The notes under the pieces were generated by a model. The model had not been told where the DNA came from. It made no database searches and was given only the letters and a program-made list of their open reading frames with translations. A program made the translations under genes and the position numbers. From Thermoplasmatales archaeon (GTDB lineage: Archaea > Thermoplasmatota > E2 > DHVEG-1): a stretch of 64,000 bases of DNA. The first letter of the stretch is position 1; every line of letters begins with the position of its first letter. This document shows positions 17,535 to 34,803 of this stretch, piece after piece. Where the stretch lies: positions 32,302-96,301 of the forward strand of contig DAOVGR010000050.1 of assembly GCA_030672305.1 (NCBI GenBank), given 5' to 3'.

Positions 17535-20500
17535 ATGTCGAAAAGACTAATTGTGTACATTATTCTATCTATTATTCTATTATCTATATTTATTCCATAT
17601 AATTCCACAGCAGAAGAAGCACCGTGGTGGAATAAAAATTGGTCTTTCAGACAAGAAATTATAATTCCGATAGATACAAGTGATGAATATGCTAAATATC
17701 AACCAATCGATATCCATATAAGTTTCAATAATACATGTTGGGCAAAAAAAGAAGATGAACATTCAATAAGAGTAATCTATCAGTACGGAGAAAGATTAAT
17801 TGAACTTGAATCTCAGATATATGATTTAGAATTTGATAACACTGAGCATCTTAATTCATGCAATCTTGTTTTTCTTATACCTGCGCAGGCAAATGGCGAA
17901 GAGAAATACTTTGTCTATTATGATGATGAGGCGAAATCTGGACCAGATTACCAAAAACATGTTGAAATTGGCGAATCTTATTATCAATACGAACCTATCC
18001 AAGGTCTAGGATTTGAATCATCATATTATAAAATCACAGAGGGAGAGGAAATTATTTATGCAGTCAATAAAGAAGGAACAGTCTTAGGTGACAAAATATC
18101 ACAGCAGGTCACAAGATTAAAGAAAGGTGCAAAAGACATTTTACCACATAATAGCGATCAAATTGCATCATTTGATTTTAATTATTGGTGGTTTAAGGAT
18201 GGAGATTGGTGTAGTATAAGTACATCAGACCGGTTTATTTCAAAACAATTATTTGTAAATGGAAATCTAATGGTTAAATTTGGAATAGTCAGTGAATCTG
18301 AAAATGCGCTTCTCAGATCAACAGTAATTTATAAATATTATTACTGTCCAACTGAGGATAAACGATTATACACTCATGTAAAGCATGAGGTCATAGGTTA
18401 TCCTCTTCCACGAGGCGAAGAAATTGATGTAGCCTATATCATACTTTCTTGTGGCGGGATAAAGAGTAGTATCATTGATGAGTTGGACTTTGGTGAGATA
18501 CCTCCATATTTGCATTTTTATAGTGATGAAGAAAGAGTAAAGTCACATAATTTTGATCAATATCCTGATTATAGTAATTGGCAAGCAATAATACATAAAT
18601 CTGATGATTATGATCTTGGAAGTTCTCCTTGGATATCTGTTGACTATGGTGAAACAGGTAAAGCGCATGGAATAATCTTAGATTCTACCAACATCTTAAA
18701 ATCTGGTACAGATGAGCGTGATGGAATTGAGCTGCAATTATATGAAGCAAAACAAATTCAGTATCCAGGATTAGAAGGAAGTTTTGCCCAGTTATACATT
18801 ATGAGAAATGCTTTTGAACAAGGTGAACCACAAGATGAAATTATTCCTGAGAATTATGTTGTTGAGTTTAATGCAGAATATTTCACAACTGAGAATGGCG
18901 GTTATCCAGTTGTAGAAAAAGAATCAAGTATTTATCAAAAGTTAATTAGCTATCAACCTGAAAATGATGATGTAGTAGATGAAGAGGAGGACGCAGAAAA
19001 ATATAATTTAATTGTGTATCCACATCTACCGCGATCATTACTATTTAAATTTAGGCTCTCCGCTTTACTTCTTAAAGCACCACAGATCACTGCTGAACTA
19101 GTACATAATGAGGAATCAATTGGATATGGAAAACCACATAGAGTGCCTATCACAGAACAGGCTAAAATTGATTGGAAGAATATCTCATTTTTCCGGAAAA
19201 TGACTTTTACAAATATTCCTTCAGGAAAATATGTTGTTAAGATATGGCTGGAGAATGCAATATTTAGCGATGAACGGGAGTTCATAGGTTATAAAATTGT
19301 TGAATTAAACAAAGATGCTGAAGCCCGAATATTTTGTAAACATCAAGGAAAAATCAGTATATCTGTAATAAATCAAGATAAAAATGGAATTGAAAATGTA
19401 GAAATATTTCTGCTAGACGATGATACAATAATTTCAGAAGTTGAAAGTGACAATAATGGAAAAGCGGTATTAAAAGCTCCTTGCGGTCTTGGTAGCAAGT
19501 ATACTTTAAATACAACCTATAAAGGATTTTTTATAGATAAGCAAAATATTAGATTGGGAAGATTAAGACAATTTATACCAAAGAGAGTTTCATTAAGCTT
19601 TGACACTCATGATTTAATGATAAATGTTTTTGATTCAGAAGGGAAAGCCCCTGAATTTAGTGTAGATCTTAGTCTAACCAGTGATGAAATGCAGGTTCCT
19701 GTTGTAATAAAACCAAATTCTACAACTGATGGAACATATAATTTCAAAGCACTTTTTCCAGCCTATTATTTTTTAAAAATAAACTATGAATTATTTGAAA
19801 TTATGGAAAAAATAAATATACCTGATTTATCTCTATTTGAAATTAAATTATATGATTTGAAAGCTTTTATCAAAGATGATTGGAATTTGCCACCAGAGGC
19901 ACCATTAGATGTTTCTCTTACAAGTGAAGATTTTGAAAAAACTGTTGTGTTAAATGCAAAGAAATTATCTTCTGAAGAGTATCTGTTTTCAAATATTTAT
20001 CCAGGAAACTACACAATAAAAGTAAGTTACAAGTCTTATAAAAGAGAGGAATCTATTAAGATTCCCTATAGAGGGGATGGAGAAACACAAATTGTTTTTT
20101 CTGCATTATTTAATATTACAACTAAGGTTCTTAATGCTCGTGGAGATCCTTTGAAAGATTCAAAGGTTCTATTTACTAGAGGAGAAAAAGAAATTGAAGG
20201 AATTTCTAATGATGATGGAAATGTTTTATTTTCTATTCCTCCAGGAAGTTATAATAGTCAGATATACTCAAATGGAGAATTGATTGCTCAAAGAAGGGTT
20301 GATGTGTTTTATGATAAGGATTACTCAATTGTAACTACAAATGAGCCTATTATTCCTTTTATAGTAATTGCTTTAGCAATACTTTTTCTTGCTTTTGCTG
20401 TAGTTTTTGCATATAAAAAGAAAAATATTCTTCTTTTCTTGAAAATATTAGCTATTGTTCTTGCAGTAATTGCTATTGTTTCTCCTTGGTGGACAATGCA

Positions 20501-20996
20501 AGGAAATACTTCTGATCCTCATTTAGAAACTTCAACAAAATTATTCATGATGCCTACAGAAATGACTACCTTAACTTCAAATAACAATTTAACTGCTGGA
20601 GAGGCATCAATACTTGATGAAAAATATACATTTGTTGTTGATCTTTTACCTTTGAGTATTATTGCTGGTATTTTGTGTTTATTGGTACCAATTATTTTAA
20701 AACGCTACATAAAAGGAAAACTTTCATTTTTGATTTTACTTCTTGTGTTAATTATTTTTATTGGCACAATTGTTATCTTTTCTTATGCAACGTCTGAGAT
20801 GGCAAATGCAACAGTTGGGAGTCTTTACGGAAGTGGTAATTTAGATATTAGCATTCCTGGAGAAAATAACTATGAAGTCATGTCATGCAGTTGGGGCCCT
20901 GATCTTAGTTTTTATCTATTTTTAAGCTCAATAATCATTTTAATAATAGTCCTTTGGTTGAACATTAAAAATAGAGATTATTTAATGTCTAAATAA
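17535..20996 (+). CDS. Large cell-surface protein: signal peptide, DUF2341-like N-terminal module, several carboxypeptidase-regulatory-like beta-sandwich repeats, C-terminal multi-TM anchor
   Basis: 1153 aa. N-terminal hydrophobic signal, WWNKNWSFRQEIIIPI motif and repeated Ig/transthyretin-like segments (e.g. NVEIFLLDDDTIISEVESDNNGKAVLKAPCG; VLFTRGEKEIEGISNDDGNVLFSIPPGSYNSQIY). The last 250 aa contain 5-6 hydrophobic helices. Confidence 0.6.
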   Translation: MSKRLIVYIILSIILLSIFIPYNSTAEEAPWWNKNWSFRQEIIIPIDTSDEYAKYQPIDIHISFNNTCWAKKEDEHSIRVIYQYGERLIELESQIYDLEFDNTEHLNSCNLVFLIPAQANGEEKYFVYYDDEAKSGPDYQKHVEIGESYYQYEPIQGLGFESSYYKITEGEEIIYAVNKEGTVLGDKISQQVTRLKKGAKDILPHNSDQIASFDFNYWWFKDGDWCSISTSDRFISKQLFVNGNLMVKFGIVSESENALLRSTVIYKYYYCPTEDKRLYTHVKHEVIGYPLPRGEEIDVAYIILSCGGIKSSIIDELDFGEIPPYLHFYSDEERVKSHNFDQYPDYSNWQAIIHKSDDYDLGSSPWISVDYGETGKAHGIILDSTNILKSGTDERDGIELQLYEAKQIQYPGLEGSFAQLYIMRNAFEQGEPQDEIIPENYVVEFNAEYFTTENGGYPVVEKESSIYQKLISYQPENDDVVDEEEDAEKYNLIVYPHLPRSLLFKFRLSALLLKAPQITAELVHNEESIGYGKPHRVPITEQAKIDWKNISFFRKMTFTNIPSGKYVVKIWLENAIFSDEREFIGYKIVELNKDAEARIFCKHQGKISISVINQDKNGIENVEIFLLDDDTIISEVESDNNGKAVLKAPCGLGSKYTLNTTYKGFFIDKQNIRLGRLRQFIPKRVSLSFDTHDLMINVFDSEGKAPEFSVDLSLTSDEMQVPVVIKPNSTTDGTYNFKALFPAYYFLKINYELFEIMEKINIPDLSLFEIKLYDLKAFIKDDWNLPPEAPLDVSLTSEDFEKTVVLNAKKLSSEEYLFSNIYPGNYTIKVSYKSYKREESIKIPYRGDGETQIVFSALFNITTKVLNARGDPLKDSKVLFTRGEKEIEGISNDDGNVLFSIPPGSYNSQIYSNGELIAQRRVDVFYDKDYSIVTTNEPIIPFIVIALAILFLAFAVVFAYKKKNILLFLKILAIVLAVIAIVSPWWTMQGNTSDPHLETSTKLFMMPTEMTTLTSNNNLTAGEASILDEKYTFVVDLLPLSIIAGILCLLVPIILKRYIKGKLSFLILLLVLIIFIGTIVIFSYATSEMANATVGSLYGSGNLDISIPGENNYEVMSCSWGPDLSFYLFLSSIIILIIVLWLNIKNRDYLMSK

Positions 20997-24892: not shown

Positions 24893-26266
24893 CTATTTTT
24901 TTAAAAAGGCTTTATACGCAAGATAAGAAGAATATATATCAACCTTACATGTAACTTCATATGGAGAATGCATACTCATTACGGGAGGTCCTAGATCAAT
25001 TACTTCCATACCAAGTCTTGAGAAGTATTTTGCAACAGTTCCACCACCACCAGTATCTACCCTTCCAAGTTCAGCGGCTTGCCAGGGAATTTTTTCTTTA
25101 TTAAGCAAGGTTCTAATTTCAAAAACATACTCTGCTGATGCATCATTTGCAGCATATTTACCACCATGACCAGTAAACTTAGACATAACAACTCCACATC
25201 CGAGAGTTGATGCATTTTTTAGTTCAAAAACTTCTGTATAGTTAGGCGTAACAGCAGCGTTGACATCTGCAGAAATAACCTTTGACTTAAGCATCACATC
25301 ATCAGGATCTATCTTTGGATCTAATTTCTTAATAATTGAACGTAAAAAGGTCGTTACCTGCGCAGTTGTGTTACCCTCACTTCCGATTTCTTCCTTATCA
25401 ACAAATAGCACAATAGCTGTGTATTCTGGGTTCTTCAAATCCATTATTGCTTTAAGAGAGGTGTAAGCACAAGCTCTGTCATCCTGACCATAAGCACCAA
25501 TTAGTGATCTATCAAAACCCATGTCCCTTGCCTTAAATGCAGGAACTGCTTCAAGTTCAGCAGAAATAAAATCTTCCTCAGTTATTCCATAGTCCTTATG
25601 TATTTTTTCTATAATTCCTGTCTTTATCTTTTCACTAATTTCACCTTTTACAGGTTGACTACCAACTGTAATATCCAAGCTTTCTCCAGTTATTGCATCA
25701 TCCAGTTTTTTTAAGGCCTGAACTTTATAAGCAAGATGAGGTAACAAATCAGGAACGGAAAATATTGGATCAGAATCGTCTTCACCAAGGGTGAATTCAA
25801 CTTTTTTACCATCTTTTTTTACAACAATACCATGTAATGATAAAGGAATAATAACCCAATGATATTTCTTTATTCCACCATAATAGTGAGTCTCAAAAAG
25901 AGCAACATTTGAAGAGGTATCTTCATAAAGTGGAATTTGTTTTAAATCAAGTCTAGGACAATCTATATGAGAAATAACAATACGAAGACCGCTACTGATA
26001 GGTTTTTTACCAGGAACAATTATCGCTGCTTCCTTTTCCCTGTTGATTTTAATTTTTTTCTTACCCAATTTAGCAATATCATTTATCTTCTGTATTGCTT
26101 CTCTTTCAGTTTTAGCTGAATCTAAAAATTTCTTATAATCTTCACAAAAATCAAATGCATTTTTTATTTTTGCTTTTGAAAATATCTCCCAAGCAGTTTT
26201 CTTTTTGTAAGCATATTTACTCTCTTTTTCTTTCTTTGAATCTTTCTTTGTACCTTTCTTTGCCAT
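24893..26266 (-). CDS. M18-family aminopeptidase (aspartyl aminopeptidase / aminopeptidase I family)
   Basis: 457 aa. M18 blocks SHIDCPRLDLK, GAYGQDDRACAY and SMHSPYE. Confidence 0.75.
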   Translation of the reverse strand: MAKKGTKKDSKKEKESKYAYKKKTAWEIFSKAKIKNAFDFCEDYKKFLDSAKTEREAIQKINDIAKLGKKKIKINREKEAAIIVPGKKPISSGLRIVISHIDCPRLDLKQIPLYEDTSSNVALFETHYYGGIKKYHWVIIPLSLHGIVVKKDGKKVEFTLGEDDSDPIFSVPDLLPHLAYKVQALKKLDDAITGESLDITVGSQPVKGEISEKIKTGIIEKIHKDYGITEEDFISAELEAVPAFKARDMGFDRSLIGAYGQDDRACAYTSLKAIMDLKNPEYTAIVLFVDKEEIGSEGNTTAQVTTFLRSIIKKLDPKIDPDDVMLKSKVISADVNAAVTPNYTEVFELKNASTLGCGVVMSKFTGHGGKYAANDASAEYVFEIRTLLNKEKIPWQAAELGRVDTGGGGTVAKYFSRLGMEVIDLGPPVMSMHSPYEVTCKVDIYSSYLAYKAFLKK

Positions 26267-26352: not shown

Positions 26353-27243
26353 TTATCTTCTTATTACATAGACGAGAATTGCAACACCTGCAATAACAAT
26401 TATTACAATTAGTGCAACAAATAGAAGTATTGGTGAACCATCAGAATCATTATTTCCATTGGTAGAGTCAGAAGTAATAGTAATAGTTGTGATATTAAAA
26501 CCAATATTTTCATCATTATCAGTAACATAAAGTTCAACTTCATATTCACCAGGTTCTTCAAATGTAAATTTAGGATTTTGCTCAGTAGAATCTATTTCTA
26601 AATCATCATCAAAATGCCATTCCCAATCGTAAGGTTCTGTACCTCCAACAGCTTCACCATAAAATTGTATGGCTTCATCTACTTTTCCTTCAGTTGGACC
26701 ATCAATTGTAACATCGACTATAAGAATATTTGGATAAATATCTGTGTATTCATTCTCATCTCCAATCTTTCCCGTGTATACCATTATTGAATCATAATCT
26801 TCATCATCGCTAATTAGATCGAATTTAATAGTTAATTTTTTTGATCCAAATCCTGTAAGTGTGAAATCTATTTCCTCCTCACCTTCGTCTGTGATTACAG
26901 ATCCATATTCTTCTTCCAGTCCACCAAAATTAATATATAAAATTTGATATTCATTTTCTGAGGTAACTAATCCTATCGTAATAAAAACGCCTACTGTTTT
27001 CTGAATATTTCCTACAAATTCAATATCAATTGTAACTTGATTATCTTCCTTCTGATATGTAATCTCATCAAAATCTATATCAATAACACTTGGATCAGGT
27101 TTACCAGAACTATCAATAACATCACCAGAACCATCTGAAATTACTTTTGTTTCATCAGCTGCCATAACAGGACATGTTGCAGCAATTAAGAAACTGAAGA
27201 TTATTAAACCAACTATCAATATTTTTTTTATCATAACAATCAC
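26353..27243 (-). CDS. Acidic secreted PKD-domain protein with C-terminal single TM anchor
   Basis: 296 aa with a signal peptide. PKD domain (PYDWEWHFDDD...NPKFTFEEPGEYEVELYVTDNDENIGFN). C-terminal hydrophobic helix followed by RR. Confidence 0.6.
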   Translation of the reverse strand: MIVMIKKILIVGLIIFSFLIAATCPVMAADETKVISDGSGDVIDSSGKPDPSVIDIDFDEITYQKEDNQVTIDIEFVGNIQKTVGVFITIGLVTSENEYQILYINFGGLEEEYGSVITDEGEEEIDFTLTGFGSKKLTIKFDLISDDEDYDSIMVYTGKIGDENEYTDIYPNILIVDVTIDGPTEGKVDEAIQFYGEAVGGTEPYDWEWHFDDDLEIDSTEQNPKFTFEEPGEYEVELYVTDNDENIGFNITTITITSDSTNGNNDSDGSPILLFVALIVIIVIAGVAILVYVIRR

Positions 27244-27386: not shown

Positions 27387-27707
27387 CTATTTCAATTTCT
27401 TTTTAAGGCCTTGTACTGTTGTTGAAAAATCATCCAATGTAGATTCTAGAGTACCTAACACATCATGTATTCTATCCGTAATGACGGCTCCATGACGTGA
27501 AGGAGAAATTAAACCGTCTTTCTCAAGAGTTCTCAAAGAATATCTAATCATATGTTGTGGTTGTCCAGTCATTTGAGATAATTTTATAATTCCTATAGGG
27601 CCATGTTCTTGAACATTTTTTAAAACATCCAAATGTCTACTAAGTAGATCTAGCTCCTTTTCAGCTACACTAGTTATACTTCTCTTATTATTGACTGCCT
27701 CACCCAA
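27387..27707 (-). CDS. Winged helix-turn-helix DNA-binding protein (Lrp/AsnC-type HTH-like, no RAM domain)
   Basis: 106 aa. HTH block LDLLSRHLDVLKNVQEHGPIGIIKLSQMTGQPQHMIRYSLRTLEKDGLI. Confidence 0.55.
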   Translation of the reverse strand: MGEAVNNKRSITSVAEKELDLLSRHLDVLKNVQEHGPIGIIKLSQMTGQPQHMIRYSLRTLEKDGLISPSRHGAVITDRIHDVLGTLESTLDDFSTTVQGLKKKLK

Positions 27708-27845: not shown

Positions 27846-28094
27846 ATGGCTACAGGATTCGCACTTTTATCAATAAGCCCATTACACGAGAAAGAAGTGT
27901 TTAATGCTCTAAATAGTATCACTGAGATAGCTGAGGTTCATCCTCTATTTGGAGAATATGATATTCTTGTAAAAATAAGCTGCTCAGAAATAGACGAGAT
28001 TGGAGATATAGTAATTAAAAAAATTAGAGCTCTTAGAGGAATCGTTGATACTAAAACACTTATTGGAACAAGAAGTTTAGAAGGATTTCAATAA
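27846..28094 (+). CDS. Stand-alone Lrp/AsnC-type RAM (ligand-binding) domain protein
   Basis: 82 aa. beta-alpha-beta-beta-alpha-beta RAM pattern (FALLSISPLHEKEVFNALNSITEIAEVHPLFGEYDILVKI...VDTKTLIG). Confidence 0.65.
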   Translation: MATGFALLSISPLHEKEVFNALNSITEIAEVHPLFGEYDILVKISCSEIDEIGDIVIKKIRALRGIVDTKTLIGTRSLEGFQ

Positions 28095-28380: not shown

Positions 28381-30465
28381 ATGAAGAGAGTAATTATTTC
28401 ATTATTCACCATAATCTTATTGATAAATACAATAAGCCAAGTAACAAGTCAGAAAATAGAAAATAACCCCCTGCCATCATATAAAAATATAATATATGTG
28501 GACGACGACAATATTTATGGCCCATGGAACGGGACACAAGAACATCCCTATAGGTACATAAAAGATGGAATATTGAATTCAACAAATGGAGATTTAGTTT
28601 TCGTTTATAACGGAATTTACAATGAAATAATAAAAATAAATAGGTCTATAAGTTTGCAAGGAGAAAATAAAAGCTTAACTATAATCGATGGATTTTACAA
28701 TCAAGAAATAATTAATTTAGCCGAAGACAACATAAAGCTGATAAATTTTACAATCAGAAATTCAGGTGGTTATCCATATAATTCTGCAATAAAGATAAAT
28801 TCTAATAATTCCTTAATACAAAAATGTGAAATTTATAGAGCCAAAGTAGGGATTTTATTAAATAATGTAATTAACAATATAATAGATAATTGTACATTTC
28901 ATACAAACGGGCAAGGAATCCTATTTAATTCATCTGAGAGTAATATTATCACAGGTTGTGTTCTTTCGCATAATTCAATAGGTTTACATTTTGAAAAATC
29001 AAATTTCAACAATATTAGTTACTGCTATACCTATGAAAATGGTATATCATGCTATATTAATGATTCAAAAGAAATCGATATTTTTCATTGCAATATAAGT
29101 GATAATTCTGTTAATCTGGGAGGTATTTTCATTGAGAATTCTTTTAACATTACCATTGATAATTCAATATTTGGACATAACGGTGCAGGTATTAGTTTAT
29201 CATCTTCAAATGAAATTTCAATTATCAATTGCGATATTATTCAAAATACTCATTTTGCAATATCTATGCGTAAACCATCAATAAACATAGTTGTGGATAG
29301 TTGTGAGATAGTAAATAATTTTAGATACGGAATTTACATTGAAAAATTAAATTCATGTACAATTACAAATAATAACATCTATAACAATAAACTATTTGGA
29401 ATTTACTCAAGATTTACGAGATGTAGAGCACGATTAAACTGGTGGGGTTCATTACTTGGTCCAACATATATTGAAAGTATTTTTAGGGGGAGAATAACTG
29501 TTTTTTTAGGGAGAATAAGATGTTTTCCTTGGAATATTAAACCAATAAAAAATATTGGTGCGAATTGGAAAGAAAATGATCCTTACCTAACAAGAATAGA
29601 GCTATATAATCAGAATAATATTTTTAATTTTACGGGGAAAGATGTTGATGATGACGGATTGCCCGATTGGTGGGAGGAAAAATGGGGATATAGTCCATTT
29701 ATTTGGAATGAGCATGCACATCTTGATCCGGATAATGATGCATTAAATAATTTCGAAGAATGCTATACTGATAAGTATGGTTCAGATCCTTTCTATCAAG
29801 ATATATTTCTTGAGATAGACTGGATGGAATCAAACCATCTGGATATATCAAACAAACCATCTGAAAATCTTATAGAAGAAATAGTTACAATTTTTGAGCA
29901 ACATAGTATTGCTTTACATGTTGATATTGGTAATTTGGAGGGAGGTGAAGAAATTCCAATTTGTAACTCAGCATTTTCATATTCAAAATTACAGGATCTC
30001 TATTGGAAATACTTTCTGCAAAACGATTTAAACAATCCTCGCAAAGGAATATTTCACTATGGAATAATTTGTAATTATTGTCCTGATCTAAATTTTCCAT
30101 TTTTTGGATGGGATCATTTTGATTCATTCGCAATATCGGCAAAATGGTTAAAGGATTTAAATCCACTCACTAGTATAGACAATCTAATCGGTGGAGCACT
30201 TGTTCATCATCTTGGCCATACATTAGGATTAATTGCAGATAAATATGGAGGAATTGATAATACTGGATCTTCCCGTATATTTACAATACAATGGCTTAAA
30301 TATAGAAACTATGAAAGCTGTATGAACTATCGTTATAAATACAAAAAATTTTCATTTTCAGATGGTACTAATGGTCGCGGTGACTTTAACGACTGGGACA
30401 ATCTTGATTTTTCATTTTTTAAAGATACGAACTTTCAATATAGAAAGTTTTTAGATTTTCCATAA
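28381..30465 (+). CDS. Secreted beta-helix / metzincin-like protein, paralog 1 (HExxH degenerated to HHxxH)
   Basis: 694 aa with a signal peptide. N-terminal right-handed parallel beta-helix (NosD/pectate-lyase-like) opening block YVDDDNIYGPWNGTQEHPYRYIKDGILNSTNGDLVFVYNGIYNE. Ca-binding-like DVDDDGLPDWWEE and DPDNDALNNFEE. C-terminal zincin-like block ALVHHLGHTLGLIADKY and Met-turn-like SCMNYRY. Confidence 0.7.
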   Translation: MKRVIISLFTIILLINTISQVTSQKIENNPLPSYKNIIYVDDDNIYGPWNGTQEHPYRYIKDGILNSTNGDLVFVYNGIYNEIIKINRSISLQGENKSLTIIDGFYNQEIINLAEDNIKLINFTIRNSGGYPYNSAIKINSNNSLIQKCEIYRAKVGILLNNVINNIIDNCTFHTNGQGILFNSSESNIITGCVLSHNSIGLHFEKSNFNNISYCYTYENGISCYINDSKEIDIFHCNISDNSVNLGGIFIENSFNITIDNSIFGHNGAGISLSSSNEISIINCDIIQNTHFAISMRKPSINIVVDSCEIVNNFRYGIYIEKLNSCTITNNNIYNNKLFGIYSRFTRCRARLNWWGSLLGPTYIESIFRGRITVFLGRIRCFPWNIKPIKNIGANWKENDPYLTRIELYNQNNIFNFTGKDVDDDGLPDWWEEKWGYSPFIWNEHAHLDPDNDALNNFEECYTDKYGSDPFYQDIFLEIDWMESNHLDISNKPSENLIEEIVTIFEQHSIALHVDIGNLEGGEEIPICNSAFSYSKLQDLYWKYFLQNDLNNPRKGIFHYGIICNYCPDLNFPFFGWDHFDSFAISAKWLKDLNPLTSIDNLIGGALVHHLGHTLGLIADKYGGIDNTGSSRIFTIQWLKYRNYESCMNYRYKYKKFSFSDGTNGRGDFNDWDNLDFSFFKDTNFQYRKFLDFP

Positions 30466-30551
30466 TTATATATAGATAAAATTATATATTGATAGGATTA
30501 ACATAAATTGGAGGAAATAATCTGAATAAAAAATATCTTTGTGTATTTATT

Positions 30552-32597
30552 TTGATTATGCTCTTACCAACAACTTTAAGTCAATCAATAACGCCAAGTG
30601 AAATAATTATTTCTGCTAAAAATTCAAAAATTATATATGTTGATGATGACAACATAAATGGACCATGGAACGGGACGAGTGAGCATCCTTATAAAACAAT
30701 AAATGATGGAATTTTTAATGCATCAGAAGGAGATACAATATATGTTTTTAATGGGACGTATTTTGAGAATGTAACAATTGAAAAAAGATTAAATTTAATT
30801 GGTGAAAATAAAAACCTAACAATAGTTGATGGACAATATCAAAATTATGTGATTAATGTTATTGAAGATAGTGTTATTATTGAAAATTTTACCATCAGAA
30901 ATTCTGGAGGTTACAAAGAAAATGCTGGAATAAAACTTGATTCAAATAATAACACAATTAAAGAATGTAAATTTTATAGAACAAAGTCTGGAGTCTATAT
31001 ACATAATAGTAATAACAATCAAATCAAAGACTGCACATTTCACACAAATGGTGAAGGTATTTACATCAAATCATCAAATAATTGTAAAGTAGATGAGAGC
31101 AGCTTATACCACAATGGAATAAGTGTAAATATTCAAGATTCTTATGAAATTGAAATCAAAAATTCCTATGAACACACAAGTGGTTATGGTTTTTTAATTA
31201 ATAATTCATCAAATATTAATATGTCAAATTGTGCAGTTTATGATAACAACGATAATGGAGGTGGACTACTAATTACAAATAATAAGGATATCTGCATCTT
31301 CAACTGTAATATTGTTCATAATGGTCATGGTCTAAATCTTTATGACTGTACAAATATCGAGGTTTTAAATTCAGATTTTATTTGGAATACACATTTAGCA
31401 ATTAGGATCGGGAAAAATACATGTAATTTAAAAATAGAAAATTGTGAAATTACCAACGGTTTTAGATATGGAATTACTGCTGAAAAAAGTAGGTTTAAAC
31501 TTAGAAATAATAACATGCATGCAAATCTTTTTGGAATAAATATTAAGAAATCATTATGTGATGCTAGAAAAAACTGGTGGGGTTCAAGCTTAGGACCGGC
31601 ATTATTACATAGGAAAGAAAAAGATAGAATGTATTTTAAACTAGGATTTATCAGATTTTTCCCATGGCTAATACGTAAAAATGAAAATGCAGGATCAAAC
31701 TGGGAAATAGACTTTGATAAGTATAAAAATGAAATCAATTTGTATCGATTTAAACAAATTGAGCTATCTGGAAATGATAGTGATAATGATCTTGTACCAG
31801 ATTGGTGGGAGGAAAAATGGGGATATAACCCATTGATTTGGGATGACCATATTAACCTAGATCCTGATTTTGATGGATTAAATAATATCGAAGAATGTTA
31901 TACTGATAAGTGGAACTCTAGCCCAATTAAAAGAGATATCTTTATTGAATATGATTGGATTGAGTCCGTCACTTCAAATAAATCAGCAAATAAACCCACA
32001 AAGGAAAATTCTAATCAATTGATTGAGGTTTTTTCTGACCATGATATAACCCTTCATCTTGACAATGGAAGTCTAGGCGGTGGGGAGATGATTCCATTTA
32101 TTTCTGATTTTTCAATGTCTGATTTACGCGATATGTATTGGGATTATTTCCTTCATAATGATTTGAATAATCCAAGAAAGGGAATTTTTCATTGGTGTCT
32201 GGTAAGCGATTATGGCCCATATCCTGGTCTTCCGGGGTTTGCAGTTGTAGGTTGGGATCATCTTGACAGTTTTGAGATATCAGCACAGAGAATGAAAGAA
32301 GGACATCCTTTTAAAAGTAAAGGTTACATAATAGCAAGCATAACTATGCATGAACTAGGTCACAATCTTGGTTTATTTGTTGATGATCATATAGGAATTG
32401 ATAATGATATATCAACTATACCTTTTTTATTGGAGCTCTTAAAAATTAAACGTTACAAAAGCTGTATGAATTATTTGTATACTTATTGGATACTTGATTA
32501 CTCTGATGGTTCACATGCTATAAATGATTTTGATGATTGGGGAAACATCGATCTTTCATTTTTTAAAAACACTCATTTTGAATGGCCAAAAAATTAG
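30552..32597 (+). CDS. Secreted beta-helix / metzincin-like protein, paralog 2 (intact HExxH)
   Basis: 681 aa. Same architecture as 28381-30465 (YVDDDNINGPWNGTSEHPYKTINDGIFNASEGDTIYVFNGTY; DSDNDLVPDWWEE; DPDFDGLNNIEE). C-terminal HELGHNLGLFVDDH and SCMNYLY. Confidence 0.7.
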   Translation: MIMLLPTTLSQSITPSEIIISAKNSKIIYVDDDNINGPWNGTSEHPYKTINDGIFNASEGDTIYVFNGTYFENVTIEKRLNLIGENKNLTIVDGQYQNYVINVIEDSVIIENFTIRNSGGYKENAGIKLDSNNNTIKECKFYRTKSGVYIHNSNNNQIKDCTFHTNGEGIYIKSSNNCKVDESSLYHNGISVNIQDSYEIEIKNSYEHTSGYGFLINNSSNINMSNCAVYDNNDNGGGLLITNNKDICIFNCNIVHNGHGLNLYDCTNIEVLNSDFIWNTHLAIRIGKNTCNLKIENCEITNGFRYGITAEKSRFKLRNNNMHANLFGINIKKSLCDARKNWWGSSLGPALLHRKEKDRMYFKLGFIRFFPWLIRKNENAGSNWEIDFDKYKNEINLYRFKQIELSGNDSDNDLVPDWWEEKWGYNPLIWDDHINLDPDFDGLNNIEECYTDKWNSSPIKRDIFIEYDWIESVTSNKSANKPTKENSNQLIEVFSDHDITLHLDNGSLGGGEMIPFISDFSMSDLRDMYWDYFLHNDLNNPRKGIFHWCLVSDYGPYPGLPGFAVVGWDHLDSFEISAQRMKEGHPFKSKGYIIASITMHELGHNLGLFVDDHIGIDNDISTIPFLLELLKIKRYKSCMNYLYTYWILDYSDGSHAINDFDDWGNIDLSFFKNTHFEWPKN

Positions 32598-33718
32598 TCT
32601 TCCTTCCATTTTGTAAGAGCAAGCCCTATTATGAAAAATATCGCTGCAAAAATTAAAACAAAAATGGTATTAATAGTTGCATCTGCCGTTTCAAGTTTTA
32701 TCATACTATCACGCAAACCTTCATTTACGTAATACAATGGAAGAACTCTTGCAACTAATTGCAGGAACTCTGGCATCATATCCAATTCAAAAAATGTTCC
32801 AGCAAGAAACATCATTGGAAAAGTAACAGCTCCACCTGCCATGCCAGCAGATTCTTCATCTTTTACAAAACGACCAATCATCATCCCAAGGCCTGTGAAA
32901 AGAAAGCTTGTTGCAATTATGATTACTATCATCAATGCAGTAACATGTACATGAAGTCCATAAATTAAGACACCAACAGCAATAATAATCACAGTTGAAA
33001 GAAAAGATAAAAAGAGCTGAAAGAGCATTTTTGAAATAATCCATTCGGATCTTGTAATTGGTGTAGTCAATAATTTTCTAAGGATTCCATCTTTTCGATA
33101 TTTTGTATTTCTCTCAAGGCTTCCATAAATACACGTCTGCATTATTGTAAAACCAATCATACCTGGAATAAAAAAATCAATATATGAAAATTCTCCACTA
33201 ATTGTCGTAACATCCTGAAGACCAATAATTTCTCTACCACCAGAAACATTCATATTTGTGTTTATAACAAAATATGATATTATATCCCTGATCTGTTGAT
33301 TAGTGGTTTGTTCGCTTTGATCAAAATAGAACATTAAATTTGAAGTTTCAGTCGAATTAGGGTTTTGTTGGGACATAATTATTGCTTCACTAAAATCTTC
33401 AGGAATTACAAGTACCCTTTTAATGTCATTTTCATCCATATACGATTTAATATCTTCGTCTTTTGGTACATTTTTAATATTTATATAACCAGTAGATTCC
33501 AGTCCTTGGAGAAAACCTTCAGTTATACCAAATTCATCATCTTCATCTAAATTTTGGACATAAAGATCAAACTCTACCTCACCTATGCCAGAAAAGATTG
33601 CGCCAAAAATTAAAATAAGCATTACAGGAAAAGCAAGAGTCCAAAACAGTGTAGCTCTGCTACGAAAGAATGATTTCAAATCGGTTTTAAAGCCTGCGAT
33701 TAAAATTTCTGGTCTCAT
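32594..33718 (-). CDS. ABC-2 family transporter permease
   Basis: 374 aa. N-terminal TM then a large extracytoplasmic domain and a C-terminal 5-TM bundle typical of ABC-2 permeases. The 5-prime end overlaps or abuts the ATPase gene. Confidence 0.7.
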   Translation of the reverse strand: MRPEILIAGFKTDLKSFFRSRATLFWTLAFPVMLILIFGAIFSGIGEVEFDLYVQNLDEDDEFGITEGFLQGLESTGYINIKNVPKDEDIKSYMDENDIKRVLVIPEDFSEAIIMSQQNPNSTETSNLMFYFDQSEQTTNQQIRDIISYFVINTNMNVSGGREIIGLQDVTTISGEFSYIDFFIPGMIGFTIMQTCIYGSLERNTKYRKDGILRKLLTTPITRSEWIISKMLFQLFLSFLSTVIIIAVGVLIYGLHVHVTALMIVIIIATSFLFTGLGMMIGRFVKDEESAGMAGGAVTFPMMFLAGTFFELDMMPEFLQLVARVLPLYYVNEGLRDSMIKLETADATINTIFVLIFAAIFFIIGLALTKWKED

Positions 33719-34803
33719 TAGGATTCCTCCATCAGTTTAGAGCCAGTCAGATGTAAGAAAACCTCCTCAAGATTTGACCTGCGTATATCAATACTATCAT
33801 ACTCAGCGCATTCATGTCTAAGAATTGATAAAACCTCAAGAACTCGGTCCTTATTATCGATTTTTATTTGGATATCTCCATTTTGTCCCACACTTGCATT
33901 ATATTCTCTTTCATTTAATATGTCAACTACATCTTTTGTTGTGCAGTTCTTTATATGAAGAATGTTTTCTTTACCATACTTATTAATTAATTCAGCAAGT
34001 GACCCCTCAGCAATAATATTTCCCTTATGAATAATTGCAATATGATCTGCTAAATACTCTGCTTCTTCCATATAGTGAGTCGTTAAAAAAACTGTTTTTC
34101 CTTTATTGCGTAGACTTGCAATTACATCCCATACCTCTCTTCTTGCTTTTGGATCAAGACCTGTTGTTGGTTCATCAAGAAAAACAATTTCAGGATCATT
34201 AACCAGTGCAATTGCAACTCCTACACGTTGTTTCAAACCACCTGATAAATTCATATAGAGTTTATTTTCTTGATCCTTAAGGTCCATAGAACCAATAATT
34301 CCATCAATATTTGCTCTTTTTTTGTAAAGTTTGGAAAAAAATTCTAAAGTTTCTCTTACAGTAATTCTCTCAAAAGAATGGTACTCTTGCGGAAGTATTC
34401 CGATTTTTTCCTTTAATTTATCAAATGAGGAGCTAATATCTTCTCCAAGTAATTTTATAGATCCCGCTGTTGGTTGACGTATTGATTCAATCATTTCAAC
34501 AGTTGTCGTCTTTCCTGCGCCATTTGGACCCAAAAATGCAAATACTTCCCCTTTTTTAACAGAAAATGAAATAGAATTTACTGCAACAAGATCATCATAA
34601 ACTTTTTTAAGATTTATTGCTTCTATTGCTACATCATCCGATACAACAACTTTTTTAAAAGTGACCTTTCCTTTTTTTCCGCATTCAGGACAAGAAACAA
34701 GAGTAACTTCTCCAGGACTACCAACACTAGTAATAATATTACCACATTGCGGACATTTAACTTTTTTTTCAACCATAAATGTACCTTTTAATGAGCACCT
34801 CAA
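33718..34803 (-). CDS. ABC transporter ATP-binding protein with N-terminal double CxxC zinc-ribbon
   Basis: 361 aa. Walker A GPNGAGKTTT, signature LSGGLKQR and Walker B VFLDEPT. Residues 15-45 contain CPQCGN...CPECGKKG. Confidence 0.85.
   Translation of the reverse strand: MRCSLKGTFMVEKKVKCPQCGNIITSVGSPGEVTLVSCPECGKKGKVTFKKVVVSDDVAIEAINLKKVYDDLVAVNSISFSVKKGEVFAFLGPNGAGKTTTVEMIESIRQPTAGSIKLLGEDISSSFDKLKEKIGILPQEYHSFERITVRETLEFFSKLYKKRANIDGIIGSMDLKDQENKLYMNLSGGLKQRVGVAIALVNDPEIVFLDEPTTGLDPKARREVWDVIASLRNKGKTVFLTTHYMEEAEYLADHIAIIHKGNIIAEGSLAELINKYGKENILHIKNCTTKDVVDILNEREYNASVGQNGDIQIKIDNKDRVLEVLSILRHECAEYDSIDIRRSNLEEVFLHLTGSKLMEES

Follow-up and report, generated by a model that had tools for sequence, protein, structure and literature searches.

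What kind of protein is encoded by two adjacent genes, ORF A and ORF B (open reading frames A and B), in a 64,000-nucleotide stretch of contig DAOVGR010000050.1 from a Thermoplasmatales archaeon? This whole stretch, hereafter called the window, is archaeal in content: it encodes TFIIB and has a G+C content of ~30%. The initial annotation of the window described the two products as secreted paralogues that join a beta-helix and calcium-binding-like motifs to a C-terminal metzincin-like domain. The locus therefore raises the questions of whether this last domain is indeed a metalloprotease, and of what role might be served by the member of the pair that lacks the catalytic glutamate. We favor the explanation, at a probability of about 0.75, that the genes encode exported beta-helix/TSP3/metzincin proteins, of which ORF B is predicted to be an active metalloendopeptidase, and ORF A, lacking the general base, is catalytically impaired or altered. 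The host would be a Thermoprofundales (MBG-D)-like member of the Thermoplasmatota, and the two diverged paralogues would be multidomain proteins of ~76 kDa. The genes are as follows.

28381..30465, + strand: ORF A, the HH-type paralogue; ATG start, 694 amino acids (aa); predicted signal peptide, beta-helix, TSP3-like pair, and metzincin-fold domain with HHLGH
30522..32597, + strand: ORF B, the HE-type paralogue; 691 aa from a probable CTG start

The full-length proteins share 47% identity and 65% similarity. All the motifs listed in the initial annotation are found verbatim in them, including the opening block YVDDDNI(Y/N)GPWNGT.EHPY (aa 39-57 of ORF A and aa 29-47 of ORF B), HHLGHTLGL at aa 609-617 of ORF A, HELGHNLGL at aa 600-608 of ORF B, and SCMNY at aa 646-650 and aa 637-641, respectively. 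The distance between the His motif and SCMNY had been given as about 30 residues and measures 37, and the spacing from the first His to the Met is 39 in both proteins. In a six-frame translation of the window, the pattern H[EH]xxHxxG...SxMxY occurs twice, in ORF A and ORF B only, and no third copy of the family was found within the window.

Fold and putative zinc site of the C-terminal domain

The segments that carry the argument for a peptidase are these.

29794..30462, + strand: ORF A metzincin-fold domain of the HH type, which shares 51% identity with the ORF B domain that was modelled
31929..32594, + strand: ORF B metzincin-fold catalytic domain, aa 460-681
30205..30261, + strand: ORF A zinc-site segment HHLGHTLGLIADKYGGIDN, with H609, H610 (replacing Glu), H613, G616, and D626
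32349..32405, + strand: ORF B zinc-site segment HELGHNLGLFVDDHIGIDN, with H600, E601, H604, G607, and the putative third ligand D617
30316..30330, + strand: ORF A Met-turn SCMNY, with S646, M648, and Y650
32460..32474, + strand: ORF B Met-turn SCMNY, with S637, M639, and Y641

When the last 275 aa of each protein were compared with Pfam and NCBIfam, no family reached its threshold for either ORF A or ORF B. Sub-threshold matches to Matrixin and Reprolysin_3 were found on ORF B only, the latter with an E-value of 0.13 and 13.2 bits compared to a cut-off of 22.4. Structural modelling, one of the checks proposed in the initial annotation, produced a clear result. The AlphaFold2 model of ORF B residues 405-681, for which an alignment of 78 diverse relatives was built as input, has a mean predicted local distance difference test score (pLDDT) of 95.7 and a predicted template modelling score (pTM) of 0.92. 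It exhibits a metzincin fold, with an upper subdomain of sheet plus helices, an active-site helix, and a lower subdomain. The secondary structure comprises five strands and several helices, including a long helix (model residues 186-201) that carries H196 and H200, equivalent to ORF B H600 and H604. These two residues lie one helix turn apart, and G203 forms the turn that closes the helix. The lower subdomain is mostly irregular and bears the Met-turn. A full-length model of ORF A, based on 113 full-length homologues (pLDDT 91.0, pTM 0.89), has the same C-terminal architecture and secondary structure as ORF B. From these models, we regard the assignment to the metzincin fold as firm, with the predicted domain belonging to no solved family.

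Metzincins are defined by the motif HEXXHXXGXXH/D and a Met-turn below the metal, wherein the Glu acts as general base and the two His residues and the last His or Asp bind zinc (PMC6949598). In some families, a Tyr located two residues past the Met serves as a “tyrosine switch” (PMC6949598). The ORF B sequence HELGHNLG (aa 600-607), which lies on the predicted helix 186-201, matches the first part of this motif. The ORF A sequence HHLGHTLG does not, as the Glu is replaced by His. Thus, the HExxH helix and SxMxY Met-turn proposed in the initial annotation are both present in ORF B, whereas ORF A has the Met-turn and an HHLGH sequence without the catalytic Glu.

Conservation within the family is concentrated on these same positions. 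Among the 78 diverse members, H196, G199, S233, and Y237 (model numbering) are invariant, and H200, G203, M235, and N236 are retained in at least 90%. Likewise, H609, G624, D626, S646, and Y650 (ORF A numbering) are invariant in the alignment of 113 full-length homologues, and H613 is present in 111. The Met of the Met-turn is kept in 74 of the 78 and 104 of the 113 sequences, and is otherwise Leu.

The third zinc ligand is where the family departs from convention. At the canonical position, ORF B has Val and ORF A has Ala, and the residue varies in the family. Most members (270 of the 288 of standard length) instead carry G-x-D-N with its Asp 9 residues past the Gly and fixed 20 residues before the Ser of the Met-turn. 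Because His takes the Asp column in variants with PIPGH[DN], and because members without the 9-residue loop have the canonical HELGHQLGLPH, we infer that in most members the third ligand is the Asp following an inserted loop (D617 in ORF B and D626 in ORF A). The function of the third ligand would then probably be retained, with non-canonical spacing.

Taken together, the zinc in ORF B would be held by His600, His604, and, past the 9-residue loop, Asp617, with Glu601 serving as general base and Met639 as the Met-turn residue under the metal. Tyr641 would occupy the “tyrosine switch” position of astacins and serralysins. Because the full catalytic set is present, ORF B is predicted to be an active extracellular metalloendopeptidase, and its last domain would represent a zinc endopeptidase family modelled by no public library. 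ORF A would retain the metal ligands, Met-turn, and Tyr, with His610 in place of the general-base Glu.

The domain can be compared with several known families. Adamalysin/reprolysin-ADAM structures (M12B; ADAM-8 4dd8, atrolysin C 1dth, and TM-1 4j4m) share 12-18% identity with it at a template modelling score of ~0.5. However, the M12B signature HExxHxxGxxHD is not found in ORF A or ORF B, which have Ala and Val at position 11, and the Pfam Reprolysin models fall below threshold. Also, the Met-turn of the window proteins is SxMNY with a Tyr, compared to the CIM type of M12B in the alignment, and their His-to-Met spacing of 39 contrasts with ~24 residues in M12B. In serralysins, this spacing is close to 39. 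The zinc motifs of astacins and serralysins have His at position 11, unlike the Ala and Val noted above. A likeness to these two families is the S-x-M-x-Y Met-turn with its invariant Tyr, and the role of such a Tyr has been described (PMC6949598). If Asp rather than His is the third ligand, as seems likely, the site would resemble that of snapalysin (M7) and other Asp-ligand zincins, for which the motif HEXXHXXGXXD has been quoted (PMC3890501). Finally, for archaemetzincins (AmzA; 2x7m, 3lmc, and 3zvs), the consensus HEXXHXXGXXHCX4CXMX17CXXC includes four Cys residues (PMC3427221), and this Cys pattern is absent from ORF A and ORF B. Solved archaemetzincin chains are 158-191 residues long, whereas the window proteins are predicted to be secreted and are fused to a beta-helix and a TSP3 unit.

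The HH-type paralogue and its relatives

In a scan of one genome per species, 481 stretches were found to encode relatives, and the best 80 of these 481 were inspected. All 80 come from metagenome-assembled genomes (MAGs) of Thermoplasmata/Thermoplasmatota. The search for this architecture in other archaeal genomes, which had been suggested as a check, was therefore productive. The nearest relative is an uncultured Thermoplasmatales MAG with 91% nucleotide identity over 12.8 kb, followed by Thermoplasmatales archaeon SG8-52-3 with 81% nucleotide identity. Both are syntenic with the window and carry the same tandem, an HH gene followed by an HE gene. SG8-52-3 has been treated as a Thermoprofundales (MBG-D) genome (PMC6461988). 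Several family paralogues are present per genome, and the catalytic domain is also found in forms with C-terminal PKD domains and in proteins of ~480-540 aa that have a different N-terminal region and no beta-helix. In this short type (loci L058, L062, L067, L078, and others; proteins P0061 and P0087), the TSP3 unit and catalytic domain follow an N-terminal region of ~150-200 aa that has no Pfam match and is often opened, after the signal peptide, by DFDPLVD. NCBI assigns one partial homologue (P0038, 57% identity) to Candidatus Asgardarchaeum californiense, which reflects either a binning error or a rare member of the family outside Thermoplasmatota.

Public names given to homologues are “hypothetical protein,” “right-handed parallel beta-helix repeat-containing protein,” “pectinesterase family protein,” and “nitrous oxidase accessory protein,” and the peptidase domain is without annotation in these names. 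A literature search found no description of the family, of a beta-helix-metzincin fusion, or of an HHxxH metalloprotease. Both results agree with the view of the initial annotation that the combination is not a characterized family. A zincin-like archaeal domain reported previously (PMC13607799) has a different, dimer-completed fold. The initial annotation had missed that ORF A lacks the Glu, that Val or Ala occupies the canonical third-ligand position, that the family has hundreds of members, and that the signal peptide of ORF B requires an upstream CTG.

The replacement of Glu in ORF A is not peculiar to this protein. Of the 113 full-length homologues, 81 carry E at this position, 25 carry H, and 7 carry T, Q, or S, and the substitution in the HH clade is always His (25 of 25). 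In a neighbor-joining tree, the HH sequences, including ORF A, form one clade that is sister to the long HE clade. The seven long-type members with T, Q, or S indicate that the general base was lost more than once in the family. Other positions diagnostic of the HH and HE types are 567 (C/G) and 571 (N/G), just before the strand expected to form the upper rim of the cleft, and 653 (K/T), just past the Met-turn. For ORF A, the ratio of nonsynonymous to synonymous substitution rates (dN/dS), calculated relative to the orthologues in the syntenic loci L001 and L002, is 0.18 and 0.15, compared to 0.13 and 0.14 for ORF B. In both genes, the C-terminal part is the most constrained, with values of 0.09-0.13. 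Because HH is conserved throughout its clade and the gene is under purifying selection, we conclude that the HH protein is kept for a function in which the architecture of the site still matters.

What this function is can be argued in two ways. By the clan mechanism, ORF A should be a poor hydrolase, and we favor a binding or regulatory role, with ORF A representing an old HHxxH clade that would act as a partner to the HExxH protein often encoded beside it. The competing possibility is that both paralogues are active peptidases with two specificities, wherein His610 either serves as general base or adjusts the optimal pH or the preferred metal. This altered enzyme accords with the invariant or nearly invariant framework of the HH clade (both His residues, Gly, Asp626, Ser646, Met648, and Tyr650), with the dN/dS of 0.11-0.13 for the HH domain, which fits a site that still does chemistry, and with the consistent choice of His, which does not resemble random loss. 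However, replacement of the Glu in metzincins that have been studied strongly reduces activity, and the seven members with T, Q, or S look more like repeated loss of catalysis. By clan definition, this Glu is the general base/acid (PMC6949598). Given also the lack of any paper found on an HHxxH metalloprotease, we consider two active enzymes unlikely.

The initial annotation viewed the tandem as a functional pair, and this proposal gains some comparative support. Nine of the 80 inspected loci contain multiple copies, and in each of the nine, one HH gene is accompanied by an HE gene of the long or short type, although these counts cover 80 of the 481 loci, are phylogenetically non-independent, and reduce to about five distinct arrangements. 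Adjacent HE-HE or HH-HH genes were not found among the 80 loci. We speculate, more tentatively, that HExxH and HHxxH proteins form an obligate protease/pseudoprotease pair, or that the HH member is an enzyme using His as general base, and that this arrangement, combined with the beta-helix and the calcium clamp, constitutes a major uncounted extracellular protein-degrading system of benthic Thermoplasmatota. We regard this broader proposal as doubtful.

Predicted export signals, beta-helix, and TSP3-type linker

The regions preceding the catalytic domain are as follows.

28381..28452, + strand: ORF A predicted signal peptide (MKRVIISLFTIILLINTISQVTSQ), with a putative cleavage site
30510..30514, + strand: GGAGG ribosome-binding-like site, 7 nucleotides before CTG 30522; kept together with the CTG in L001 and L002
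30522..30587, + strand: ORF B predicted signal peptide, (M)NKKYLCVFILIMLLPTTLSQS, matched by tblastn to its counterpart in ORF A
28489..29595, + strand: ORF A right-handed parallel beta-helix (aa 37-~350) and C-terminal cap with NWWGS (29437-29451)
30630..31763, + strand: ORF B right-handed parallel beta-helix and cap (NWWGS at 31572-31586); Pfam PF13229 and PF05048
29641..29775, + strand: ORF A double TSP3-type DxDxDG unit, DVDDDGLPDWWEEKWGY (aa 421-437) and DPDNDALNNFEECYTDK (aa 449-465)
31776..31910, + strand: ORF B double TSP3-type DxDxDG unit, DSDNDLVPDWWEEKWGY (aa 409-425) and DPDFDGLNNIEECYTDK (aa 437-453)

The predicted signal peptide of ORF B depends on the choice of start codon. The public gene call begins at ATG 30558 and yields 679 aa, and the corresponding public protein (P0265, 679 aa) is 100% identical to ORF B. 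A TTG at 30552 would yield 681 aa (30552..32597). Upstream in this frame, the first stop is at 30504 and a CTG lies at 30522, and residue 2 of ORF A aligns to this CTG position in tblastn. The arrangement of CTG and GGAGG is conserved in both syntenic relatives, L001 and L002. From the TTG, only a truncated hydrophobic start is made, and a normal signal peptide results only from the CTG. We conclude that CTG 30522 is probably the true start, and that the public call probably cuts off the signal peptide. The claim that both proteins begin with a signal peptide therefore holds for ORF A as annotated, and for ORF B only from the upstream CTG.

Hydropathy reveals one hydrophobic segment per protein, located at the N terminus, and no C-terminal anchor. 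Signal-like N termini occur across the family. In the ORF A model, a helix at residues 2-18 precedes a low-confidence stretch at 21-30, which is the pattern expected of a signal peptide. These features point to export of both proteins by a Sec-type signal peptide. A scan for sigma-70 promoters returned fewer sites than in shuffled sequences, although the sigma-70 model is not meaningful for an archaeon, and an alignment of the regions upstream of the two genes gave no useful signal in such AT-rich DNA. Two antisense reading frames inside ORF A (29885-30166, - strand, 93 aa) and ORF B (31340-31738, - strand, 132 aa) would encode hydrophobic sequences of low complexity, and most likely arise by chance in the AT-rich DNA.

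Residues ~50-345 of both proteins match the Pfam models Beta_helix (PF13229) and NosD (PF05048) well above gathering scores, with E-values for ORF B of 4.7e-36 and 3.2e-19, respectively. The ORF A model has ~13 beta-helix coils spanning aa 37-349. Five conserved Cys residues of ORF A (149, 171, 193, 215, and 237; window positions ~28825-29091) are spaced exactly 22 residues apart on successive coils and form a cysteine ladder inside the helix. All the nearest relatives of the beta-helix domain share the ~690-aa architecture. The rigid right-handed helix, which is NosD/AlgE4-like, could act as a stalk or as a platform for binding glycans or surfaces.

It might instead be proposed that the beta-helix provides the main function, as a polysaccharide lyase, epimerase, hydrolase, or glycan-binding adhesin, and that the metzincin-like domain is an accessory binding module of proteins that are not proteases. 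In structure, the beta-helix comes nearest to NosD, followed by the AlgE4 epimerase, alginate and pectate lyases, glucanases, and phage depolymerases. Also, public labels such as “pectinesterase family” and “parallel beta-helix repeat protein” point in this direction, as does a weak Pectinesterase match (PF01095) on ORF B. However, this match reaches 24.2 bits compared to a cut-off of 27, ORF A gives none, and a match to RHGA is likewise under the Pfam threshold. The conserved residues of the beta-helix make up a stacked H-N-G/Cys ladder, as is typical of this repeat, and no catalytic constellation was identified among them. In contrast, constraint in both genes is strongest on the C-terminal domain, the catalytic residues of ORF B are all present there, and the existence of proteins of ~480 aa without a beta-helix makes the catalytic domain the constant element of the family. 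NosD and AlgE4, for comparison, have no peptidase domain. A family of carbohydrate-active or adhesive proteins is thus quite improbable, and we retain the reading of the pair as exported metzincin-fold proteins.

The linker between the beta-helix and the catalytic domain was described in the initial annotation as resembling thrombospondin-type-3 calcium sites. The 22-residue Pfam TSP3 model (PF18884) reported nothing on ORF A or ORF B in hmmscan. However, a library-wide search with a profile of the family alignment retrieved giant proteins that match the linker segment alone, 10-40 times each, and whose repeats are TSP3_bac by Pfam. In BLASTP, the 52-residue linker of ORF B is 40-52% identical to each TSP3_bac double repeat (E 2e-10), which bears out the resemblance. 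The repeat unit concerned has the form DxDxDG...PDxWE / DPDxDGLxNxxE. The library-wide results were dominated by such TSP3 repeat proteins, and among the matches listed there was no distant catalytic-domain bridge to a named peptidase family. TSP3_bac proteins carry long arrays, whereas ORF A and ORF B have a single double unit.

Both loops are acidic at positions 1, 3, 5, and 12 (D409/D411/D413/E420 and D437/D439/D441/E448 in ORF B), and these residues are invariant or nearly so. In the 113 full-length homologues, D421, D423, D425, E432, D451, D453, and E460 (ORF A numbering) are invariant. In the ORF B model, a helix comes after each of the loops (H13-18 and H41-50, model numbering) with a pLDDT of ~98, and the unit forms one rigid body with the catalytic domain. 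The DxDxDG loops are presumed to bind calcium, and the double unit would pack against the last domain. The invariant Glu448 (E44 of the model) was considered as a ligand for a zymogen “switch,” but this residue is position 12 of the second DxDxDG loop, and a role as calcium ligand is simpler. Just past this loop, Cys461 (ORF A) is invariant in 113 of 113 long-type proteins and is replaced by Tyr or Trp in the short type. No partner Cys was identified for it. A disulfide between Cys461 and Cys647 of the Met-turn was rejected because position 647 varies (C/I/S/V) and position 461 is fixed.

Several of these results weigh against the explanation we favor. The signal peptide of ORF B requires a rare CTG start, and the signal peptides of both proteins were judged by eye and from hydropathy. 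The Asp ligand was assigned by comparative sequence logic, with Val or Ala in the canonical position. The model has no clear long C-terminal helix after the Met-turn, a feature of canonical metzincins, and shows only two 4-residue helices in this region. The same holds for the limited number of distinct tandem arrangements, as noted above, with respect to pairing.

Neighboring genes and biological meaning

Genes near the pair are as follows.

24893-26266, - strand: M18 aminopeptidase, two genes upstream of the pair, with synteny kept in at least 15 related loci
26353-27243, - strand: 296-aa protein with a signal-like N-terminal segment, a PKD domain, and a C-terminal hydrophobic anchor
27387-27707, - strand: small winged-helix protein (CggR_N/HTH_24-like)
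27846-28094, + strand: stand-alone Lrp/AsnC ligand-binding (RAM) domain protein; like the winged-helix gene, immediately upstream of ORF A
32594-34803, - strand: ABC-2 permease (374 aa) and ABC ATPase (361 aa), convergent to ORF B
17535-20996, + strand: 1153-aa ORF with CarboxypepD_reg-like and Y_Y_Y domains

The order of M18 aminopeptidase, PKD protein, winged-helix protein, Lrp/AsnC-RAM protein, family gene or genes, and convergent ABC-2 permease and ATPase is kept at one orthologous locus (~31 loci) and does not follow the family elsewhere. The RAM gene holds its position in 26 of the 80 loci, and it is possible that the winged-helix and RAM proteins regulate the pair. Weaker homologues of the 296-aa PKD protein occur at the same position in related loci. 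The M18 aminopeptidase, together with the predicted endopeptidase, suggests a peptide-degradation flavor for the neighborhood. The product of the 1153-aa ORF is probably also a large surface or secreted protein.

ORF B and the permease ORF share 4 nucleotides, and the ATPase has an N-terminal CxxC...CxxC zinc-ribbon-like extension. This adjacency is suggestive by analogy, as NosD of the NosDFY transporter is the nearest structural relative of the beta-helix. The window proteins might thus be NosD-like extracytoplasmic partners of the ABC-2 transporter, docking as NosD does on NosFY to process or hand over cargo. However, the arrangement of RAM gene, family gene or genes, and ABC-2 genes is confined to the one orthologous locus, so that a family-wide link was rejected, and family genes elsewhere, including many HH and all short-type genes, are without an ABC-2 neighbor. 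Moreover, the family and ABC-2 genes are convergent, whereas nosDFY genes are co-oriented in nos clusters. The NCBIfam model for NosD proper, which acts in N2O-reductase maturation (TIGR04247, NosD_copper_fam), gives 63 and 76 bits compared to its cut-off of 300, so the window proteins are not NosD orthologues. A transporter partnership is accordingly very improbable. An error of assembly or binning, in which one of the genes was collapsed or duplicated, can be dismissed almost entirely even though the window appears to come from a MAG, because the copies share just 47% identity, the HH-then-HE tandem recurs between the same flanking genes in the two other, independent MAGs described above, and both genes are under purifying selection.

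We therefore return to the pair as members of a new metzincin family, one with an atypical zinc motif and architecture rather than a new kind of system. The family combines a confidently modelled metzincin fold, a full catalytic set in most members, and signal peptides, yet has no peptidase annotation. It would represent a second archaeal metzincin lineage beside archaemetzincin, with an unusual zinc motif in which a loop is inserted before the putative Asp ligand. Its long-lived HHxxH sister clade offers a natural test of a metzincin without the general base.

MBG-D (Thermoprofundales) and related Thermoplasmatota are among the most abundant archaea of sediments, and it has been argued that they live on detrital protein (PMC6461988, PMC9123169). 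Inventories of their extracellular peptidases have been built from matches to MEROPS and Pfam (PMC6461988, PMC9123169). Because the family carries no peptidase annotation, censuses made in this manner would miss it.

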